Positions 1 through 6,967 of a stretch of 54,579 bases of DNA are shown piece by piece (the stretch's first letter is position 1; the number at the start of each line of letters is the position of its first letter). The stretch lies in IMG/VR virus record IMGVR_UViG_3300044801_000147, positions 1 through 54,579 of that record; one strand, 5' to 3'. This stretch comes from a virus (taxonomy: Duplodnaviria > Caudoviricetes). The notes beneath the pieces were generated by a model, which searched no databases, was not told where the DNA came from, and was given only the letters and a program-made list of their open reading frames with translations. Made by a program: the position numbers and the translations under genes.

Positions 1-38
1 ATCTGAATCCGGAAGTTACCTGGCGGTTGGTTGGACTA

Positions 39-620
39 GAGGCGGCAGCCTCGTTGTTCGGCCGACTTCACCTAGCCCTGAAGTACCTCGGCACCTGTAT
101 AAATGCAGCAGGACGCTAGTGGTTAGTGGGAGTCAGGGTAATTTGCATAGCCCTAAGAGGGTGAAGCCGCTGGCTCCGACATTCGTCCGACGTGGTGCCC
201 GGCTCTAACCAGTCGTCGTTGCTTCTCCCTTCTGGGGAATAAGTACCCAGCAGGACGAAGAGGGGCAGTGCACTTGCCGAGGTTTTAAGATTAGCAAGAC
301 CGCAGGGTAGCTGTAGATTGGGAAGTCACAGCCAAGATTGCATCGGTGAAGTGCCCGCCCTGTGGGAACAAGTTTAGTAGCACGGCGATTGACAAGGATT
401 CCTAGATAGTTGCACCTTGTCGAGTATCGTGGTACGCTAGTAGACCACGGCGGACAGGCTACCCTACCGCATCTTCCTCCCCTTCTTTAGGGGGTGCGGC
501 GAATAGGGGCTCAACCAAGGCGGGCTGGCGGCTGAGCTTAAACAGTAAAAAACCCTGACCATTCGTTCAGTCCATATTTAGGAGGACAGTCATCCATGTC
601 CTCAAGTAGGGAAGTCGGCC
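39..620 (+). ncRNA. Large highly structured non-coding RNA candidate (family unassigned; may begin upstream of the window)
   Basis: No ORF. Nested long-range helices: 60-74/607-620, 132-139/552-559, 165-178/521-533, 304-314/454-465, 355-365/445-453, 381-397/415-431, 467-473/493-499, 582-588/597-603. Crossing 9-bp pairing 85-93/275-283. Strand assumed from G-U pairs and the downstream tRNAs. Confidence 0.6.
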
Positions 621-970
621 TGAGTTCGGGATGCATCGGAAGCACCTGAGGGGTAACCCGTAGAAGGTGGATGTGGGCTCGGGCCGCTTTACAAAGTTCG
701 GAGGCTCCCAGACCTCAAAACTGGGTGGTTGCGGGCGGGTGCGGACTTTTCCAATTTGCGAGAAAGAAGTCGCAAGATGGAGAGGAAGAAGAACTGGTTT
801 ACGTCAGAGCAAGGCAGTCGTTTGAGAAAAGCACAGATCGCGCCGTAGGCTTTGAGCCGGATGCAGAAGGGCCAGCGAGAGAATATGACCTTATTGGACG
901 GGAATATCTCGCATGTTCTCGAAAGAGCGTGATCGGGTCGGCACGACACAAAACCGACCCACGATTTTGA

Positions 971-1046
971 TGCGGGGTAGTAGCGCAGGTCAATACGAGA
1001 GGCCCATAACCTCTAAACGCCAGTGCAAATCTGGCCCCCGCAACCA
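971..1046 (+). tRNA. tRNA-Met(CAT), initiator-like acceptor stem
   Basis: Acceptor TGCGGGG/CCCCGCA-A-CCA. Anticodon stem AGAGG/CCTCT with loop CCCATAA. T-arm GCCAG-TGCAAAT-CTGGC. CCA encoded. Confidence 0.88.
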
Positions 1047-1157
1047 AGACATAATCCCGCCGCCTAGCTCGACTTGAAGCGGCGTGGGAGGGACCGAAGG
1101 GGAGTCGTAAGCGGCGACGGCCGATACAGGTAACAGCCTTCCTGTCCCGAAGAGTTT

Positions 1158-1297
1158 CGCAGCGGTGTGTTGTACGGTTACTTCTACATGAACCCAGAGG
1201 CGCTGGTCCGATTCCAGCCACCCCGACCAATGACGGGGCGTAGCTCAGTGGCAGAGCGCGGGGAAACGAAAACGCCGTGCAGATTATGTTCCCTGCG
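1158..1297 (+). ncRNA. YrlA-like (bacterial Y RNA) permuted tRNA mimic
   Basis: T-arm GCTGG-TCCGATT-CCAGC (1202-1218) precedes a loop-closed acceptor stem CACCCCG-accaatga-CGGGGCG (1219-1240) and a D-arm TA-GCTC-AGTGGCA-GAGC. All are enclosed by a terminal stem (CGCAG/CTGCG, TGTACGG/CCGTGCA). This is the YrlA arrangement. Confidence 0.7.
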
Positions 1298-1473
1298 GAT
1301 TCAGTTTTGAGGTCCCGTGGAGTTCGTAGGTCACTGACCCAACTCTTGGGATCAGCAATTCTCGGGAGCCAGTTCGAGCGGGTTAAGTCGGCATGGGCGC
1401 AGCCGAGCCTCAAAAGTTTGCCCGCCTGTGACGGCGAGAGCCTCTAATACAGTTGTCTTGGGGCGGGTTTGAA

Positions 1474-1657
1474 TTTCCGGTCGTGGCGAATAGACACGAT
1501 CCAAAAATAGAGCCGCTATGCCCTGCCGTTGAGAAACACGGTTCGGCTAGATTCGAGGGTATGCGAGTCATCTCACGAAGATGAGTTGATCCGCTCTCGC
1601 GAGAGACGGTAATCGAATCATGCTGGCGGAGAATCGGGCATCCCTGCCGACCGGAAA
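1474..1657 (+). ncRNA. Structured ncRNA candidate (~185 nt)
   Basis: Closing stem TTTCCGGTCG/CGACCGGAAA. Inner helices ATGCCC/GGGCAT, GATTCGA/TCGAATC, TCATCT/AGATGA. GNRA hairpin TCTC-GCGA-GAGA. Confidence 0.45.
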
Positions 1658-1683
1658 ACTTTGAAACACGGTATTTAAGCTGC

Positions 1684-2091
1684 ATGTACCGTGATCGAGA
1701 AGCCGGGAAGTTAAAACTTCAGGCTTACAAGAAAACAGCGGAATACAAAGCGAAACAAGCTGAGTACAGCGCTGAGCAGAGAAAGACCGAAACTTGGAAA
1801 GAACGTACTCGACGAAATGCAAGGGTGTATCGAGCGAAAATCCGAGCGGAAGTCATCGCAGCTTACGGCGGCAAGTGTAGTTGTCCTCGTTGCGACGTTA
1901 CAGATTCAAGATTTCTAACCTTGGATCATGTCAATAACGATGGTGCGCGGCACCGCGAGCAAGTTAAGGCAGGCGCTCAGGTCTATCTTTGGGCTAAGCG
2001 CAATGGGTATCCTGACAGCTTGCGCGTGTACTGCTGGAACTGCAACTGCGGTCGTCAATGGAACGGTGGGGTTTGTCCCCATCTTCAATGA
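1684..2091 (+). CDS. HNH endonuclease (putative free-standing homing endonuclease)
   Basis: YGGKCSC..C, LTLDHVNNDG, GYP, CWNCN motifs. GTATT motif 13 nt upstream of ATG. Confidence 0.85.
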   Translation: MYRDREAGKLKLQAYKKTAEYKAKQAEYSAEQRKTETWKERTRRNARVYRAKIRAEVIAAYGGKCSCPRCDVTDSRFLTLDHVNNDGARHREQVKAGAQVYLWAKRNGYPDSLRVYCWNCNCGRQWNGGVCPHLQ

Positions 2092-2264
2092 GTTTGAAGC
2101 AGGTCGAGGTTCAGCTAGAGCGAAAGCGGATAGCTAGTTCGGTAAGCCTAGTTTCAAATGGCGGAAGGTGCTTTCCCGTTCTCGGACGTAAACCGAGTGG
2201 TGGAACCCTGACGGGCGCAAATCCGCCGGGCCTACGTTTTGCGGTTCGGCAAAAACCGCACAAC

Positions 2265-2387
2265 ATGAGCGTGATCACCAGCGAGTCGTACTGTGCGACT
2301 TGCAATGAACTGGACAAGCAGTGCCAGTGTGAAGGTGCGCAGCGCCAGATTAGACTGCGCAAGCGTCAAGTACCAAGGAATCGCTAA
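2265..2387 (+). CDS. Small Cys-rich hypothetical protein (40 aa)
   Basis: ATG at 2265: MSVITSESYCATCNELDKQCQCEG..., with CxxC and CxC. Confidence 0.35.
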   Translation: MSVITSESYCATCNELDKQCQCEGAQRQIRLRKRQVPRNR

Positions 2388-2433
2388 TGACTTACACGTC
2401 CCAACTCGACCTGTTTACCAGCCCCTTTCGGGG

Positions 2434-2934
2434 CTAAGCAGTTGTGTGTTTGGGGGACGTAGCTGATGTGGTCTTAGCGCCCGCCTGAAAAACGGGAGAT
2501 GTCAGTTCGATTCCGGCCGTCCCCACCATCCTCTCCCTTTTCCTAGTGACCTTCCTGTGGCAGTTCGCGCAGCGAACTTCACATTTCTCGATTTCTTTCT
2601 GTAGCGTTTCTAACCTGTAACTGTTGTACACCAGATCGCAGATGTTGTACGCTTTCTTTCCCCTTACGTGGTCGAAATCCAGACAGACAGGATCAGACTC
2701 ATGGCAGTCAACGCAGCCATGCGTTTCTAAATAGGTTCGAACAAAATCTCGTTTCCTCTGCCAGCGTGCTCGAAACTGCACTGCATATTTTCGCTTTGAA
2801 GAAGGGAGGTTGTGGTGTACACCGTCGTATTTTGTTTTGCAGGTCTTGCAATAGCTATGACGAATCTGCTTGGCCCGGTTCCGCCAGTGGAATTGGCCTT
2901 CAGGTAAGTCATCCTTGCATTTTGTACAGATCAT
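2434..2934 (-). CDS. HNH endonuclease; its 3' end overlaps tRNA-Phe antisense
   Basis: N-terminal CTKC..YCKTC. C-terminal GCVDC..LDFDHV..EIEKCEVRCANCHR. Confidence 0.85.
   Translation of the reverse strand: MICTKCKDDLPEGQFHWRNRAKQIRHSYCKTCKTKYDGVHHNLPSSKRKYAVQFRARWQRKRDFVRTYLETHGCVDCHESDPVCLDFDHVRGKKAYNICDLVYNSYRLETLQKEIEKCEVRCANCHRKVTRKRERMVGTAGIELTSPVFQAGAKTTSATSPKHTTA
2453..2528 (+). tRNA. tRNA-Phe(GAA)
   Basis: GGGGACG/CGTCCCC-A-CCA acceptor. Anticodon loop CTGAAAA. T-loop TTCGATT. One C-A mismatch each in the anticodon and T stems. Confidence 0.88.
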
Positions 2935-2962
2935 TTCTCTTCAATACCTAGTATTAAGCGTC

Positions 2963-5900
2963 ATGGAGGGAAACACTCTGTCAGACGAACAGCCCATCGT
3001 AGATGCAACGCCTGCCGTTGTCCCTGCCAAGAAAGTCCGCAAGCCGCGTGTAAAGTCCGCGACACCCAAAGAGCCAAAGCCCAAAAAGGTAAAACCAGCC
3101 CGCGACCTGCGAACCGTGTTCCGCGAGAAGATCGCGGGCCTGACCCCCGAGAAGATCAAGAAGCCCTGGATGGCCGAGAAGGTCTTCAGGATCATAGACA
3201 ACGCGGCCGACCTTGAGGTCTGGGCCGAGAACGTCCTGTCCGACCCGTCCCGCTTCCACGCCTGGGCCGGGCGCAGGTGCCCCGTGCTCGCCGTCGACAC
3301 TGAGAACACCAGCCTGGACACCCGCATCTTCGTCGACTTCAAGCAGCTCGACAGCGGCGACTGGGCGCTTGTCTACGAGGTCAGGGTGGAGATCGCGGGC
3401 GTCTGCCTGTCGGCGGACGGCATCGAGGGCGTCTACATCCCGATCAACCACGAGAAGGGCGCGAACGTCCCGCGCGAGCACGCGGCCCGCATCCTCCAGC
3501 GGCTCTTCGACGGCTGCCACCTGGTCTTCTACAACGGCAAGTACGACCGCGAGGTCTGCCGCATCACCCTGGGCATCAGCTTCAAGCCGTACCCCCACTT
3601 CGAGGACGTCCAGGTCCTCAAGTACATCAACGACCCGAAGGCCGACCTGGGCGATAAGGGCAGCTTCAGCGGCGACGCAGGCGGCCTGAAGGCGCTGTCC
3701 GAGACCGTCCTGGGGATCGAGCAGATAGAGATCGAGGAGATCGCCAAGGTCCGCGCCCACAAGTTCGACCCCGCGACGGGCAAGAACACCCTCAAGATGC
3801 AGATCGTCCCCTTCACCTGGGTGCCGGTGGAGCTCGCGCTCTGGTACGCGGCGGCGGACGCCATCTGCACGTGGCTGCTCTGGGACAGGATGAAGGACCT
3901 GGCCAGGAGCCGCAGCCTCATCCACCACATCGACCACGAGCTCATCGACACGCTCTCCTACGTGGAGCGGCAGAGATTCCTGGTCGACGTGAGCCGCCAG
4001 CGCCGCACGGCCCGATGGCACGGCCGCGTGCTCGCCGACCTGAGAGCGAAGCTGGGCGGGCTCGCCGTCGAGGCGGGCTGGGCGGGCGGTCTCGCCGTCG
4101 AGGGCAAGGAGTGCAAGGACGCCTTCAACCCGGGCTCCCCGAAGCAGCTCGCGGGCCTGCTGTTCAGGACGCTCGGCTTCAAGCCATACATCACCACCGA
4201 CTCGGGGCAGTACTCCACCAACAAGGAGACGCTGGTCGAGCTGGTCAAGCAGTACCCGGACAACGAGTTCCTCAAGGCGCTCCAGGAGTACCGCGAGCTC
4301 GCGGCGCTCCACCCGGACAACCTGCGCTACGACCCGAAGGACAACTCCGCCCGCCTCTACCTCAAGCAAAACGTGGTGGCCGGGGGACGCCTCTCCGGGG
4401 CCGGGGGCACGTTCGAGAAGGACGGCGGCCTGGAGTGGAACCCGCAGGGTGTCAAGAAGCTGGAGCCCGACGACTTCTGGAAGGTGCGCGGCAACGTCCT
4501 GGAGCCCGACTCCGTGCCCGAGCACGAGATCGAGGAGCACCCCGAGTCCGACCTGCACCCGTCGTGCTTCCGCGAGGACAAGGGCGTCGTCGAGAAGGCA
4601 CCCGGCGTCATCAAGAACCACATCGGCCTGTACCAGGACTACGCCATCTGCCTGGTGCCGAAGTGCACGACCTGCAAGGACAAGTTCGGGGTACTGATCG
4701 AGGACACGTCGCTCGACGCGAACCAGGTGGTGAACCTGCGCGTGCTATTCAGGGCGGCGGACGGCTGGACCTTCTTCTCGATCGACTACTGCCTCGCACC
4801 CTCCACAAGATTGCTGACCTCCGACCTGCGCTGGAAGCGGGCGGATGAAATAGTCAAGGGAGAGGAGCTGATAGGTTTTGACGAGAACCCTCAGAAGTCT
4901 AGGTACGGTCGTCGAAGACTGAGAGGCTCTAACGTCCTCAGCACTAAAAAAGTCCGCCTGCCATGCGTTAGGATCACCACAAATTCAGGGTCATTCGTTG
5001 TTTCAGAAAACCACGGATGGCTCGTTGAAAGAGCCACCGGAGGCAGAAAACGAGTCCGTGGCAAGCAGGGGTGGACGATTTCTAAAGACCTGCAAGCCGG
5101 GGATAAAATAGCGCGGCTCTGCGACCCGTGGGAAGAGGACCGTAGTTATGACGCCGGATACCTTAACGGTTTGTTTGACGGGGAGGGTTGGGCAACCGCG
5201 ACAGGGGTCGGGATAGGGCAAAAGAAGGGGCCGGTGCTTGACAAGGCTAAACGGCTGCTTAGGGGAATGGGCTACACGGTATCCCACGACACCCCTAAAG
5301 ACGGGGTAGACGTTCTGCGCGTCCTCGGCGGCAGAAATGCCTCCTTGAGGTTTTTAGGCAGCGTCAGACCTGAACGTCTAATTAAAAACGCCAGGAAAAA
5401 CCTTTGGGAGGGGAAGACGTGCTCAAGCCGGTATACCGTGCCAGATGAGGTAATATCCGTAGAGCACGTAGGGGTTCAAGACGTAATCGCCGTAAAGACG
5501 ACAACCAAGACTTTCATCGCCGAAGGTCTGCTGTCGCACAACTGTAACATCGAGGTCCGCACGGCGGCCAACCTGTCTGGCGAGCCGGAGCTCCAGAACA
5601 TCTTCCTGTACGGCGACGGCGACCACCACGCGCTGACCGCGTCCAAGATTTTCCCCGAGTACAGCGACCCGACCTCCAAGATGTACAAGGCGAAGTCGCT
5701 CCGCGCCATCGCGAAGACTATCAACTTCGCGCTCCAGTACGGCGGCACCTCCCACGCGATCTACAAGAACATGGTCAAGAACGACCCGACCATCACGAAG
5801 GAGAAGTGCGACGAGATGGTCGCGAAGTACTGGGAGGGCGTGCCGAAGTTCAAGGAGTGGTGCGACGGCAAGCAGCTCAGGGTCCGCGAGAGCATGGTCT

Positions 5901-6967
5901 GCGAGACCAAGACCGGGCGCGTCATCGACTTCAGGTCCGCCATGGAGGCGAAGGGCATCCACGTGCCGTCCAAGGAGGAGCGCCAGAGGCTCAGCCAGTA
6001 CTACGACCTGAAGCGCGAGGCCAAGAGGGCGAAGGCGGACAAGGACGACGACAGGCTCGAGAAGTACGAGAACGCGGCGCAGCGGCTCTGGAAGAACCCG
6101 GACACGGGCGTGCGCAACGCGATCGACTACAACCAGTTCATCGGGTACATCCAGCGCGTGGCCGTCAACTGCCCCGTGCAGGGGCTCTCCGGGGACTTCA
6201 TGAGGATAGCCCTCAACCGCATCAAGAAGTGGATCGAGAGGGACCCGGGCGTCCAGGCCGTGTTCCGCCTGCACGGCTCCGTGCACGACGAGATAGACGT
6301 CTCCATCAAGAACGAGTACATCCCGTTCGTCCTGCCGCGCCTCACCAGGCTGATGAAGCTCCGCAAGTACCACGAGAGGGAGGGCTGGATCGTGCCGATC
6401 GAGTGCGACGCTGAGTACGGCCACTCCTGGGACGTGGACTACAACGTCACGGACAAGAAGGACCCCGCCGCCTACACCAAGGTCGAGTACTGGAGGAGCT
6501 ACGTGCCGAGCATGTTCTCCCCCGAGCTCTACACGAGGCTCTACCGCGCCCTGGTGTCCGGGGACGGGGCGAAGGTCGACCGCGCCAAGGAGTGGCTCAA
6601 GGTCAACCTGCACCCGAAAGCGTTCCAGTCCGCGCAGTGCCTATTCGAGACGAACGCGAAGGCGGGCTGGCCGCTCACCGACCCCAGGGAGATCAAGCGC
6701 GTCTTCGTCGCCCTGCTACAGCTCCACGAGTACTGGACGATCGACCACGTCCCCGACTCCGAGGACGCCGCGCTGGAGACCCTCGCGCAGTACGAGGGCC
6801 GCATGGGCATCTACGCCCGCGACGAGCGGTGCCCGGAGTTCGGCTACCTCGGCGCGATCCCGCTCGGCTGCAACGTGGTAAGGCCGACCCCGGAAATCCT
6901 CGGCGACGCGCCTGTTGAGTTCCTCCCGCTGGAGCCCCAGGAGGTGCAGCCTGCCCTACCACTTTGA
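2963..6967 (+). CDS. polA: DNA polymerase family A (3'-5' exonuclease + polymerase; no 5'-3' exonuclease), intein-containing
   Basis: ExoI AVDTE, ExoII YNGKYD, ExoIII YAAADA. FNPGSPKQL, GRLSG, motif A IDY|CNIEVR, motif B RAIAKTINFALQYG, motif C VHDEI. Start placed at ATG 2963 after the GTATT motif. Confidence 0.95.
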   Translation: MEGNTLSDEQPIVDATPAVVPAKKVRKPRVKSATPKEPKPKKVKPARDLRTVFREKIAGLTPEKIKKPWMAEKVFRIIDNAADLEVWAENVLSDPSRFHAWAGRRCPVLAVDTENTSLDTRIFVDFKQLDSGDWALVYEVRVEIAGVCLSADGIEGVYIPINHEKGANVPREHAARILQRLFDGCHLVFYNGKYDREVCRITLGISFKPYPHFEDVQVLKYINDPKADLGDKGSFSGDAGGLKALSETVLGIEQIEIEEIAKVRAHKFDPATGKNTLKMQIVPFTWVPVELALWYAAADAICTWLLWDRMKDLARSRSLIHHIDHELIDTLSYVERQRFLVDVSRQRRTARWHGRVLADLRAKLGGLAVEAGWAGGLAVEGKECKDAFNPGSPKQLAGLLFRTLGFKPYITTDSGQYSTNKETLVELVKQYPDNEFLKALQEYRELAALHPDNLRYDPKDNSARLYLKQNVVAGGRLSGAGGTFEKDGGLEWNPQGVKKLEPDDFWKVRGNVLEPDSVPEHEIEEHPESDLHPSCFREDKGVVEKAPGVIKNHIGLYQDYAICLVPKCTTCKDKFGVLIEDTSLDANQVVNLRVLFRAADGWTFFSIDYCLAPSTRLLTSDLRWKRADEIVKGEELIGFDENPQKSRYGRRRLRGSNVLSTKKVRLPCVRITTNSGSFVVSENHGWLVERATGGRKRVRGKQGWTISKDLQAGDKIARLCDPWEEDRSYDAGYLNGLFDGEGWATATGVGIGQKKGPVLDKAKRLLRGMGYTVSHDTPKDGVDVLRVLGGRNASLRFLGSVRPERLIKNARKNLWEGKTCSSRYTVPDEVISVEHVGVQDVIAVKTTTKTFIAEGLLSHNCNIEVRTAANLSGEPELQNIFLYGDGDHHALTASKIFPEYSDPTSKMYKAKSLRAIAKTINFALQYGGTSHAIYKNMVKNDPTITKEKCDEMVAKYWEGVPKFKEWCDGKQLRVRESMVCETKTGRVIDFRSAMEAKGIHVPSKEERQRLSQYYDLKREAKRAKADKDDDRLEKYENAAQRLWKNPDTGVRNAIDYNQFIGYIQRVAVNCPVQGLSGDFMRIALNRIKKWIERDPGVQAVFRLHGSVHDEIDVSIKNEYIPFVLPRLTRLMKLRKYHEREGWIVPIECDAEYGHSWDVDYNVTDKKDPAAYTKVEYWRSYVPSMFSPELYTRLYRALVSGDGAKVDRAKEWLKVNLHPKAFQSAQCLFETNAKAGWPLTDPREIKRVFVALLQLHEYWTIDHVPDSEDAALETLAQYEGRMGIYARDERCPEFGYLGAIPLGCNVVRPTPEILGDAPVEFLPLEPQEVQPALPL
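4790..5542 (+). mobile_element. Intein (251 aa) with one recognisable LAGLIDADG motif, in polymerase motif A
   Basis: Starts CLAPSTRLLT, block B VSENHGWL, YLNGLFDGEGW, ends FIAEGLLSHN followed by Cys+1. Lower GC3 than the extein. Confidence 0.95.

Follow-up and report, generated by a model that had tools for sequence, protein, structure and literature searches.

Folded RNA cassettes with separate inheritance in the tRNA gene cluster of a very large soil phage

Huge phages carry large arrays of tRNA genes, and the spacers between these genes are mostly unannotated. The locus examined here raises the question of what such a spacer holds. It lies at the beginning of a viral record of 54,579 nt (IMGVR_UViG_3300044801_000147), the whole of which is referred to below as the window. 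An earlier note on this DNA had read positions 39-620 as one ornate non-coding RNA of about 600 nt, closed by a long-range helix, containing further nested helices and perhaps a pseudoknot. In this study, we compared the stretch with its relatives, and found that it consists of folded RNA cassettes, arranged in a row and each inherited on its own, within the tRNA genes of a very large soil phage.

The tRNA array and its flank

The stretch 39-620 is devoid of long open reading frames, as had been claimed: the + strand has only the contig-end frames 2..208 and 3..119 and a 30-aa frame (27..119), and no frame on the - strand exceeds 35 aa. The stretch is located within a tRNA array of the viral record, and the flanks of relatives carry 5-14 tRNA genes, all on the strand of PolA (the + strand in PolA-oriented loci), with tRNA-Met directly after the module designated D2 below. 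The cassettes lie on the same strand as all tRNA genes. In the window, ARAGORN detected two tRNAs and no tmRNA. The last gene of the array, tRNA-Phe (2453..2528, + strand; Rfam and ARAGORN), precedes the gene for PolA, a DNA polymerase (2870-6967, + strand) with a LAGLIDADG-type insert within. An odd tRNA-Met-like element (CAU) is present at 971..1047 (+ strand), some 280 nt beyond the 3' end of D2; in relatives, its place is taken by a standard tRNA-Met that follows D2 immediately. This element scores 36.2 bits with the Rfam tRNA model (974-1039), is not called by ARAGORN, and is 82% identical in two other loci (L275 and L276). A Cys/His-rich 135-aa ORF also occurs inside the array, at 1684-2091.

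The 5' flank (1..74, + strand), which includes a hairpin at 39-52 and the strand 60-74, is specific to the window. Homology to every relative begins at 75 by both blastn and MAFFT, and in 4/4 sequencing runs compared, loose contig ends fall "before 75". At the same place, the flank of relatives is different and consists of a GCCGCC..GGCGGC hairpin with ACTAGCGTATTA ahead of it. In relatives, a motif containing TATTAT also precedes module A (described below) by about 70 nt. In L004 this motif is a 9/12 sigma-70-like match; it is absent from the window, whose contig begins just upstream of A. We considered CTAGCGTATTA as a general phage promoter motif and rejected it, as its repeats in the genomes of relatives were not above the control count. 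None of the 10 sequencing runs listed was an RNA run holding window 1-2900, and the contig comparison is one of DNA only.

Long-range helices and the single-RNA model

All strands on which the single-RNA model was built are present in the window. They are GGCCGACTTCACCTA (60-74) and TAGGGAAGTCGGCC (607-620) of the closing helix, ACCTCGGCA (85-93) and TGCCGAGGT (275-283) of a 9-bp pairing, and GTCAGGGT (132-139) and ACCCTGAC (552-559) of a second long-range helix said to be crossed by this pairing. In favor of the model, the long-range strands are complementary, and positions 39-640 fold somewhat better than shuffled sequences (-235.3 versus -212.6 +/- 8.2 kcal/mol; z -2.79; 0/20 as good). The minimum free energy structure of 39-640 includes both long-range helices, and the closing helix persists with the local helices P1 and P3 of module A forced, if the sequence ends at 640. 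However, when the fold is extended to 700, so that a conserved hairpin at 611-690 is complete, both long-range helices have a pair probability of 0.0. In the same fold, P1 (85-93/275-283) has a probability of 0.81-1.0 and the helix 616-624/678-686 one of 0.94-1.0.

Comparison with four relatives (L003, L004, L006, and L137) gave the same picture. Across these and the window, the share of paired cells is 56.9% for the closing helix and 50% for 132-139/552-559, which is background (34-51% in slid controls, three tested helices pooled over the five sequences); P1 is paired in 100%. The 5' strand of the closing helix lies in the flank that has no homolog in any relative, and its 3' strand is the 5' strand of the conserved, covarying hairpin D2. 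Relatives carry A without B, and also B or D without the flank of the window. Moreover, when the first 700 nt were shuffled 300 times, 16% of the shuffles contained a perfect 10-bp inverted pair within 620 nt; over the full window, 87 such pairs occur, versus 58 +/- 11 in 30 block shuffles.

Since P1 is supported and 132-139/552-559 is not, the proposed pseudoknot amounts to one real local helix, which closes module A, crossing an unsupported long-range helix. A single RNA of some 600 nt that combines nested long-range helices with this pseudoknot is, in our view, very improbable. The interior of the proposed RNA is a mosaic of cassettes, and the best-supported unit within it is about 200 nt long.

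Folded cassettes

Homology to relatives breaks at 75, 268/286 (~290), 362-370 (~368), 575/580 (~577), 606, and 688/694 (~690). These breaks delimit cassettes A, X, B, D1, and D2, and the combination present varies among relatives. In some relatives, a 64-aa ORF or another RNA (module C) replaces X and B.

Module A (75..286, + strand) is a four-way-junction RNA of about 200 nt. It is closed by P1 and comprises, in the alignment fold, hairpins P2 (~94-112) and P5 (~220-266), and a helix P3 formed by GACG (112-115) with CGTC (214-217) and by 120-126 with 205-211, which encloses the P4 hairpin(s). A 15-nt invariant strand, CCGACGTGGTGCCCG (187-201), lies inside P3, and an 8-nt invariant palindrome, AGTGCACT (267-274), lies in the junction. 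In alignment A6, which holds seven distinct sequences, RNAalifold gave 45 pairs, 20 of which had changed on both sides, and 97.1% of the 315 cells are paired, compared with 32-50% in slid controls. The covariation score was reached by 0/500 shuffles, a control inflated by the kinship of the seven sequences, which come from one narrow clade. In P3, 6/7 pairs are compensatory, and an extra variant of A in contigs of run X2 (125 A>G with 206 T>C) is likewise compensatory in this helix. G-U pairs account for 31 of the 315 paired cells (hand count); these would be C-A on the opposite strand, and the pairing therefore works only as + strand RNA. The folding energy is -83.6 kcal/mol for the + strand and -71.2 kcal/mol for the - strand. 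As a single sequence, A folds only modestly better than shuffles (z -1.87; 11/200 as good), and the 181-204 bits that CM R1 gives to A sequences are high by construction, these being its own training set or identical copies. Overall, A is a well-supported, undescribed RNA fold of about 200 nt.

A protein reading of A was rejected. The window frame 2..208 and the L004 frame 4254..4586 cross parts of A, and the variation is compensatory; in L003, the ATG aligned with the start of L004 4254 leads to a TGA inside A (hand translation).

D1 (582..603, + strand) is a hairpin of GAGGACA and TGTCCTC with a conserved loop motif, TCATCCA, bounded by contig homology breaks at 575/580 and 606. In alignment A7 (five sequences), its helix is 80% paired, with 2/8 pairs compensatory. 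D2 (611..690, + strand) is a long irregular hairpin composed of 616-626/676-686, GCATC/GATGT, CACCT/AGGTG, and an apical GGG-GTAA-CCC, with a conserved asymmetric internal loop (GA / GTAGA). These four helices are 97-100% paired in A7. For D1 and D2 together, 94.2% of 172 cells are paired and 7/35 pairs are compensatory, versus 0-3 in slid controls. D is common to L003, L004, L006, L137, and L140, and in L004, L006, and L137 tRNA-Met follows within about 15 nt of D2. RNase P-like, hammerhead-like, and tRNA-like features seen by eye in D2 and 584-970 were dismissed, as the motifs are incomplete and relatives lack 695-970.

The remaining two modules were each folded from two sequences. X (294..366, + strand) is a small predicted hairpin domain in which CCGCAGGG (300-307) would pair with CCCTGTGG (358-365). 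It is common only to L002 (6339-6419, 86.6% identity by blastn) and one contig of run X3, whose record 13 spans 254-362. RNAalifold gave 20 pairs, with 0 compensatory and 2 one-sided pair-keeping changes, so that X is a weak candidate for a structured RNA domain. B (370..575, + strand) has a long hairpin (~376-445) and a multi-branch domain (~447-566), with 49 pairs, 3 of them compensatory; ACCCTGAC pairs within B in this fold. B is common to the L004/L005/L138 lineage (window 370-694 is about 80% identical to L004) and contigs of runs X2-X4, and module C takes its place in other relatives. As read from the alignment, one internal hairpin of B is swapped for a different hairpin at the same position in L004, and GCTCA/TGAGC of the window corresponds to GGTCG/CGACC.

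Searches for further homologs placed A in the lineages of the window, L003, L004/L005, L006, L007, L137, and L140, as a single copy per genome; the related genomes G002 and G003 have it, whereas it is absent from a complete 463-kb relative (G001) and from G004. Among the matches listed in a 14-mer scan of viral contigs, the two-block motif of A was found only in the window (L001) and L003-L007. The two-block pattern matched 4 stretches in viral contigs, every one in known contigs, and 7 stretches in metagenome contigs, namely the L007 contig, 4 identical to known variants, and 2 new ones (L137 and L140). With a looser pattern, viral contigs yielded 9 stretches, and R1 found no member among the 5 new ones; in genome contigs, R1 gave at best 22.9 bits at the pattern site among 80 listed loci, and no member. 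The genome-contig matches listed are chance matches in high-GC bacteria and have no bearing on absence from bacteria. Patterns for D2 and B returned known contigs only. A PolA-profile search identified 37 wider-clade loci, including 30 new ones, in which R1 produced just two matches (E 0.07-0.09, 13 bits) and blastn found only 971-1047, 1155-1307, 1474-1503, and 1615-1664 in common, with no A, X, B, or D. In all, A is known from seven distinct sequences and one contig variant of one narrow clade.

None of the cassettes matched a known RNA family. By cmscan, the finding has no Rfam 15 family at the gathering score (whole window) or at E<=10 (1-3000 and 1-760), and the sole E<=10 row near the stretch is an 11.8-bit noise match on the - strand (15-48). 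The same scans gave no match to ROOL or GOLLD, whose covariance models we take to be part of the Rfam 15 library. Nor was there any signature of RNase P, tmRNA, or group I/II introns, as the earlier note had stated: Rfam has no match over 39-700 at E<=10, ARAGORN found no tmRNA, and the sole tmRNA-type row (beta_tmRNA, 16.1 bits, 1202-1242) lies outside the finding. The suggestion of an undescribed RNA thus stands in that the locus encodes conserved, structured + strand RNA outside Rfam 15, but falls in that this RNA is not one class of about 600 nt.

The closest known systems resemble the cassettes in part. ROOL, according to PMC5737381, is a structured phage and prophage RNA that often adjoins tRNA genes and is possibly co-transcribed with them. 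The cassettes share with ROOL and GOLLD the position of a structured phage RNA within a tRNA array, but they are units of about 70-210 nt that are inherited separately, and no pseudoknot is supported. A set of 8,495 "csRNAs" from IMG/VR, which include tRNA-like elements and putative cis-regulators, was also based on covariation in intergenic regions of uncultivated viruses, as presented in PMC10690425; the length published there is 29-151 nt, and by this length only is A (about 200 nt) set apart.

Possible roles of the cassettes

With moderate confidence, we propose that the + strand encodes four or more structured non-coding RNAs as cassettes with independent inheritance (A, 75-286; X, 294-366; B, 370-575; and D, 582-690), and that these RNAs would be stable and co-transcribed with tRNAs. 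Each cassette has its own local fold, and those of A and D are backed by covariation. The cassettes would be transcribed together with the tRNAs, and in relatives the unit may run from the TATTAT-containing motif to the tRNA-Met just after D2. They would then be cut out of the tRNA precursor, the 3' side being released when RNase P processes the 5' end of the tRNA, and the other ends may come from A/U-rich UUUAG linkers between cassettes, and from the P1 stem of A together with its U-tail. The promoter, processing sites, and 3' ends of the cassette transcripts are all putative.

By analogy with species I/II RNAs (RNAC/RNAD) of phage T4, the cassettes may act in trans as stable folded RNAs. According to PMC2330249 and PMC9697503, the T4 RNAs derive from the same ~1.75-kb precursor as eight tRNAs, and the latter source describes RNAC and RNAD as "of yet unknown functions". 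In both systems, non-coding RNAs lie among phage tRNA genes on the same strand (+ for the cassettes, according to G-U pairs) and the tRNA region is a mosaic; that of T4 varies from one related phage to another and includes a gene for a homing endonuclease, as outlined in PMC2330249. The systems differ in that several cassettes occur here, and in the greater size (about 200 nt) and four-way junction of A; in addition, co-transcription and processing are shown in T4 and inferred for the cassettes. No homology to RNAC/RNAD was seen: with window 1-2450 as the query, a "distant" blastn search found nothing in 50,697 phage records.

Among the cassettes, A is the likeliest to bind a specific partner, be it a protein, the end of a tRNA, or a second A molecule, on account of its four-way junction, the 15-nt invariant strand in P3, and the 8-nt invariant palindrome. 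GOLLD, ROOL, and OLE form homo-oligomers, according to 10.1101/2024.12.08.627333. By analogy, the palindrome AGUGCACU might let one A pair with another, as large ornate RNAs do, and A would resemble these RNAs in permitting self-association; we offer this as an idea. With regard to targets of the invariant strand, its complement occurs in the window at 15 sites with <=3 mismatches (5.7 expected), and no site with <2 mismatches was found in the window outside A itself.

In at least three lineages, A is immediately followed by a small ORF that has a GGAGG site, a position that may fit a cis-acting role equally. Under this explanation, which we consider possible though unlikely, A is a leader, either riboswitch-like or a conditional terminator that senses a protein or tRNA. 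With the four-way junction and P1 formed, the P1 stem and U-tail would halt transcription before the small ORF and/or tRNA-Met; an alternative pairing of GGTGCC (194-199) with GGCACC (90-95) would break P1 and allow read-through. A candidate terminator tail, TTTTAAGATT (284..293, + strand), does follow directly after the 3' strand of P1. It is T-rich in 7/7 aligned sequences, with >=4 leading T in 6/7, and is missed by a simple terminator scan because the "loop" far exceeds the limit of 8; a terminator stem around a 180-nt domain is, however, unusual. P1, T5-6, GGAGG, and the ATG of a 64-aa ORF follow one another in 4 of the 7 A lineages (L003, L004, L006, and L140), and A is situated about 70 nt after the -10-like TATTAT in relatives. 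On the other hand, no ORF follows A in the remaining 3/7 lineages (the window, L007, and L137), which have other RNA cassettes there instead. The 64-aa ORF has no Pfam family and only weak PHROG matches of unknown function (best E 0.012), and a 104-aa form of the small ORF has Pfam matches below threshold only, so that the downstream gene gives no hint of a ligand.

Invariant unpaired strands within covarying helices are typical of ligand-binding RNAs. A has such strands; it also has a stem with a U-tail behind it, next to which some relatives have a ribosome-binding site and an ORF. In these respects it is similar to riboswitch and T-box leaders, but no known aptamer family and no Rfam riboswitch matches it. 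The alternative pairing is possible in 7/7 sequences, GGCATC variants retaining it via G-U (alignment reading); both of its strands are invariant, and therefore covariation could not support it.

It is improbable, in our estimate, that the cassettes are mobile inserts, selfish or in decay, that gene conversion driven by homing endonucleases has spread in the tRNA region, or intron or tRNA remnants, with folds kept for their own mobility or stability. Close relatives do differ sharply in the presence and absence of cassettes, which are swapped, and the LAGLIDADG-type insert in PolA and the Cys/His-rich ORF are nearby. SegB, encoded in the T4 tRNA cluster, converts the tRNA region of a relative to its own variant, as related in PMC2330249. 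Yet the compensatory changes in A and D indicate selection on RNA pairing across phage divergence. There is no group I/II intron match at E<=10, no terminal repeats were seen on the cassettes, and A, present once per genome, is not dispersed like a repeat element.

A further possibility, to which we give little credence, is that A is a sensor controlling its own tRNA operon. Its invariant unpaired strand or its junction would bind either a small ligand or the end of a tRNA, and termination at the P1 stem and U-tail, ahead of the later cassettes and the initiator-type tRNA-Met, would depend on this binding. The invariant strand contains UGGU, the complement of the tRNA 3' ACCA end, and might thereby bind tRNA ends. 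If true, this would be T-box-like logic applied to a tRNA gene, rather than to an aminoacyl-tRNA synthetase gene, in a huge phage. Finally, it is barely credible that the conserved inverted repeats act as DNA, for example by serving as an origin of replication or by binding proteins close to the polymerase gene. The site is just upstream of PolA, and proteins could bind AGTGCACT and some of the invariant blocks, but the G-U cells of A require + strand RNA, its helices stay paired while their sequence changes, unlike sequence-specific DNA sites, and the cassettes lie inside the presumed tRNA transcription unit.

With the cassettes as the preferred reading, the map of this locus is corrected: the units of study are 75-286 and 582-690, in place of a closed RNA at 39-620. 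In this clade, several folded RNAs occupy the spacers of the tRNA array; they evolve under selection on their pairing, and as cassettes they are reshuffled among relatives. A provides a concrete and small target, about 200 nt in length, for probing, pull-down, and structural work. If A regulates or assists tRNA supply, or counters a host defense aimed at tRNA, it would be a new RNA tool in phage biology.

Genomic setting and the chain of cassettes

The window is an entire IMG/VR virus entry of 54,579 bases with an estimated completeness of 17%. Its positions 1-2450 lack convincing ORFs; downstream of them comes a family A DNA polymerase gene (2870-6967, plus strand). Related polymerases were identified by protein-guided searches in 8 viral loci, and a polymerase profile search gave 37 loci of the wider clade. 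Two of the polymerase-bearing relatives are records of 463,033 and 455,708 bases, complete according to CheckV. In the 10 kb preceding the polymerase, all close relatives carry 5-14 tRNA genes, every one on the polymerase strand, and the RNA stretch thus lies within a tRNA array belonging to a huge phage. Both public runs that contained at least half of the sampled window words are labelled peat metagenome, and one of the two may be the sample of origin. The polymerase, whose length ranges from 1073 to 1490 aa among relatives, has a LAGLIDADG-type insert separating the exonuclease part from the polymerase part; residues 760-823 there match LAGLIDADG_3 (22.3 bits, cut-off 22.5), which suggests an intein.

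Conservation between the window and loci of relatives (named L with a number) is block-wise and patchy (blastn, MAFFT). Positions 75-286 are common to L137 (81%) and L007 (70%) and partially to L004, L003 and L006; 294-375 has a counterpart in L002 only (86.6%); 370-694 is common to L004/L005 (80%), and 584-694 to L006, L003, L137 and L140. Public DNA contigs aligned with window positions 1-1100 break at 75, 268/286, 362-370, 575/580, 606 and 688/694, with other sequence beyond. Upstream of 75, contigs from all four runs match the L004 or L006 type, not the window's flank. The interval is thus a chain of cassettes, namely A (75-286), X (294-366), B (370-575), D1 (582-603) and D2 (611-690), the coordinates marking positions that we infer for the RNA ends. 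A/U-rich TTTAG linkers appear to join the cassettes. L002 has X together with another module, C, and lacks A.

Conserved folds of the modules

Module A was compared in seven distinct sequences (the window, L137, L007, L004, L003, L140 and L006). Their RNAalifold consensus has 8 helices and 45 pairs; standard pairs occupy 97.1% of its 315 cells, versus 32-50% with partners slid by 1-3 columns, and 20 pairs show two-sided changes, versus 1-7 in the slid controls. None of 500 shuffles reached the covariation score, a control inflated by the small number and close relationship of the homologs; comparison with slid partners is fairer. The predicted fold is a four-way junction of helices P1 (85-93/275-283), P2, P3 and P5, with P4 inside P3. 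Six of the seven pairs of P3 (120-126/205-211) are compensatory, the window having TGGTTAG/CTAACCA and L004 CAAGCAG/CTGTTTG; P1 has a single U-A to C-G exchange, in L007; and a variant of A in X2, one of the public runs, combines 125 A>G with 206 T>C. A 15-nt strand inside P3 (187-201) and an 8-nt palindrome between P5 and P1 (267-274), both on the plus strand, are invariant. The folding energy of the single A sequence is modest: z is -1.87, and 11 of 200 shuffles did at least equally well. A is single-copy wherever present and is absent from two genome records of relatives, G001 and G004, and from 30 loci of the wider clade.

Small conserved ORFs flank A in L004 (3758-4096 and 4392-4586), with homologs in L002, L003, L006 and L007; neither had a Pfam family above threshold. 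The upstream ORF has 104-112 aa with Cys-rich motifs. The downstream one, of 64 aa, has a GGAGG site and third-position variation, and lies between A and the next RNA in L003, L004 and L006.

In the D structure (D1 and D2, 5 sequences), pairing holds in 94.2% of cells, and compensatory changes occur in 7 of 35 pairs versus 0-3 in slid controls. One internal loop of D2 is conserved and asymmetric, with GA facing GTAGA, and we take it to resemble a loop E or bulged-G motif. Within about 15 nt after D2, a tRNA-Met gene follows in L004, L006 and L137; in the one at L004 4896-4972, positions 1 and 72 mismatch and the anticodon stem has three G-C pairs at its base, presumably initiator features.

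B (2 sequences; 49 predicted pairs, 3 compensatory, and one hairpin swapped for another) and X (2 sequences; 20 pairs, 0 compensatory) are plausible but weakly supported as structured RNAs. Where the window and L004 have B, other loci carry module C, which is another RNA, about 215-250 nt long; its approximate ends are L003 6455-6690, L006 5802-6040, L007 4378-4610, L002 6428-6620 and L137 4364-4570. It is non-coding and conserved, begins with GTGGCCCGTGATTC, and includes a variable hairpin and an A-rich loop, CCCC AGTATAAAAAACGCAGCAGC GGGG; a search of L003 5900-6900 gave no Rfam match at E<=10. Overall, the cassettes are inherited as units, their local folds are under selection, and they lie on the plus strand within the tRNA array.

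Other elements of the array

Positions 1156-1301 (plus strand) resemble a Y RNA of the YrlA type (Rfam YrlA, 29.4 bits, E 0.0013, below the gathering score of 69). Its two ends form a long stem, inside which a T-arm, a hairpin and a D-arm follow one another in permuted tRNA order. Identity is 76-80% in L009 and L275/L276, and the T-arm shows compensatory changes. G004, the record with L009, has an open frame of 477 aa in which a TROVE (Ro60-like) domain scores 40.4 bits (cut-off 23); no TROVE match was found in the window, G001, G002 or G003.

An odd tRNA-Met-like gene (971-1047, plus strand, anticodon CAU) scored 36.2 bits with Rfam tRNA and received no ARAGORN call; its T-loop is TGCAAAT. 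Its identity is 82% in L275/L276 and 74% in L280, L282 and L283, and one contig of public run X3 has 159 other letters bridging its place. This gene, the 695-970 insert segment and the YrlA-like RNA are bracketed by a perfect 13-bp inverted repeat (711-723 with 1302-1314, GACCTCAAAACTG / CAGTTTTGAGGTC); about 0.5 such pairs are estimated by chance in the window. A 135-aa ORF within the array (1684-2091, plus strand) is Cys/His-rich (CxCPxC ... DHVNNDG ... CWNCNC) and presumably HNH-like; it matched no Pfam family at E<=0.1. A short block (2173-2204, plus strand) with a small hairpin, CTCGG..CCGAG, has 97-100% identity in L003, L004, L006 and L009, with two copies each in L004 and L006.

Possible roles and relation to known RNAs

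On balance, we lean towards the cassettes being co-transcribed, processed, stable RNAs that act in trans. They would be transcribed along with the tRNAs and then released by processing, and an RNase P cut at the 5' end of tRNA-Met would release D2 on its 3' side. A motif, ACTAGCGTATTA, occurs about 70 nt upstream of A in relatives, in one copy per locus (two in L137, the second at bases 3-14). It contains a -10-like TATTAT, with a 9/12 sigma-70-like match in L004; as a general motif genome-wide, it was not borne out. The precedent is the T4 tRNA cluster, in which a precursor of about 1.75 kb yields the species I and II RNAs along with eight tRNAs (PMC2330249).

A could instead be a cis-acting conditional terminator or leader, which we consider doubtful. 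A T-rich tail follows P1 in all seven A sequences, and in L140 the 64-aa ORF starts directly 3' of A. Less likely still, the cassettes may be selfish and without function for the phage; the T4 cluster contains the homing endonuclease gene SegB, which is described in the same paper as causing the tRNA region of a relative to be replaced (PMC2330249).

The earlier note had proposed a single RNA of about 600 nt at 39-620, closed by helix 60-74/607-620. The six strands it quoted are all present where it placed them, 39-620 lacks a long ORF, and the folding energy of 39-640 beats shuffles (z -2.79, equalled by 0 of 20). The minimum free energy fold of 39-640 includes both the closing helix and helix 132-139/552-559. 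With the fold extended to 700, both have pair probability 0.0; across the window, L004, L006, L137 and L003, 56.9% and 50% of their cells are paired, figures that count the window's own perfect pairs, and slid controls of the whole tested structure gave 34-51%. P1, the 9-bp helix also drawn in that proposal, held at 0.81-1.0 and is 100% paired across relatives. Helix 616-624/678-686 has probability 0.94-1.0, and bases 611-620, most of the proposed 3' strand (607-620), belong to D2, in the 5' strand of its hairpin; the closing helix is favoured only when the sequence is cut near 640, a cut that takes away the true partner of 611-626. When the first 700 nt were shuffled 300 times, 16% of the shuffles contained by chance a perfect inverted pair of 10 bp within 620 nt; the window has 87 such pairs versus 58 +/- 11 in block shuffles. 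One RNA of this length is thus highly improbable. We give next to no credence to a DNA-level element: 31 of the 315 cells of A are G-U (hand count), so only a plus-strand transcript can adopt the fold.

tRNA was the sole Rfam 15 family with gathering-score matches on the window, and searches of 1-3000 and 1-760 at E<=10 gave nothing over 39-700. The lone exception nearby was an 11.8-bit noise match on the minus strand (15-48). GOLLD, ROOL, OLE, HEARO, introns, RNase P and riboswitch families, all of which we take to have models in Rfam 15, went unmatched. A relative's region spanning A, the ORF, C and D had no Rfam match, ARAGORN called no tmRNA, and blastn in 'distant' mode found 0 matches among 50,697 phage records. 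Of the proposed undescribed large RNA class, structured RNA without an Rfam 15 match stands, and 39-620 is a chain of cassettes, not one unit.

GOLLD and ROOL are described as structured RNAs near tRNAs (PMC5737381), RNAC and RNAD of T4 as still of unknown function (PMC9697503), and the csRNA candidates of an IMG/VR survey as 29-151 nt long (PMC10690425). No description of A was found in the abstracts and passages of the literature searched. Structured RNAs without an assigned function in phage tRNA regions are an already known kind (T4 species I/II, GOLLD, ROOL); within this kind, A is a new fold, limited to a narrow clade.
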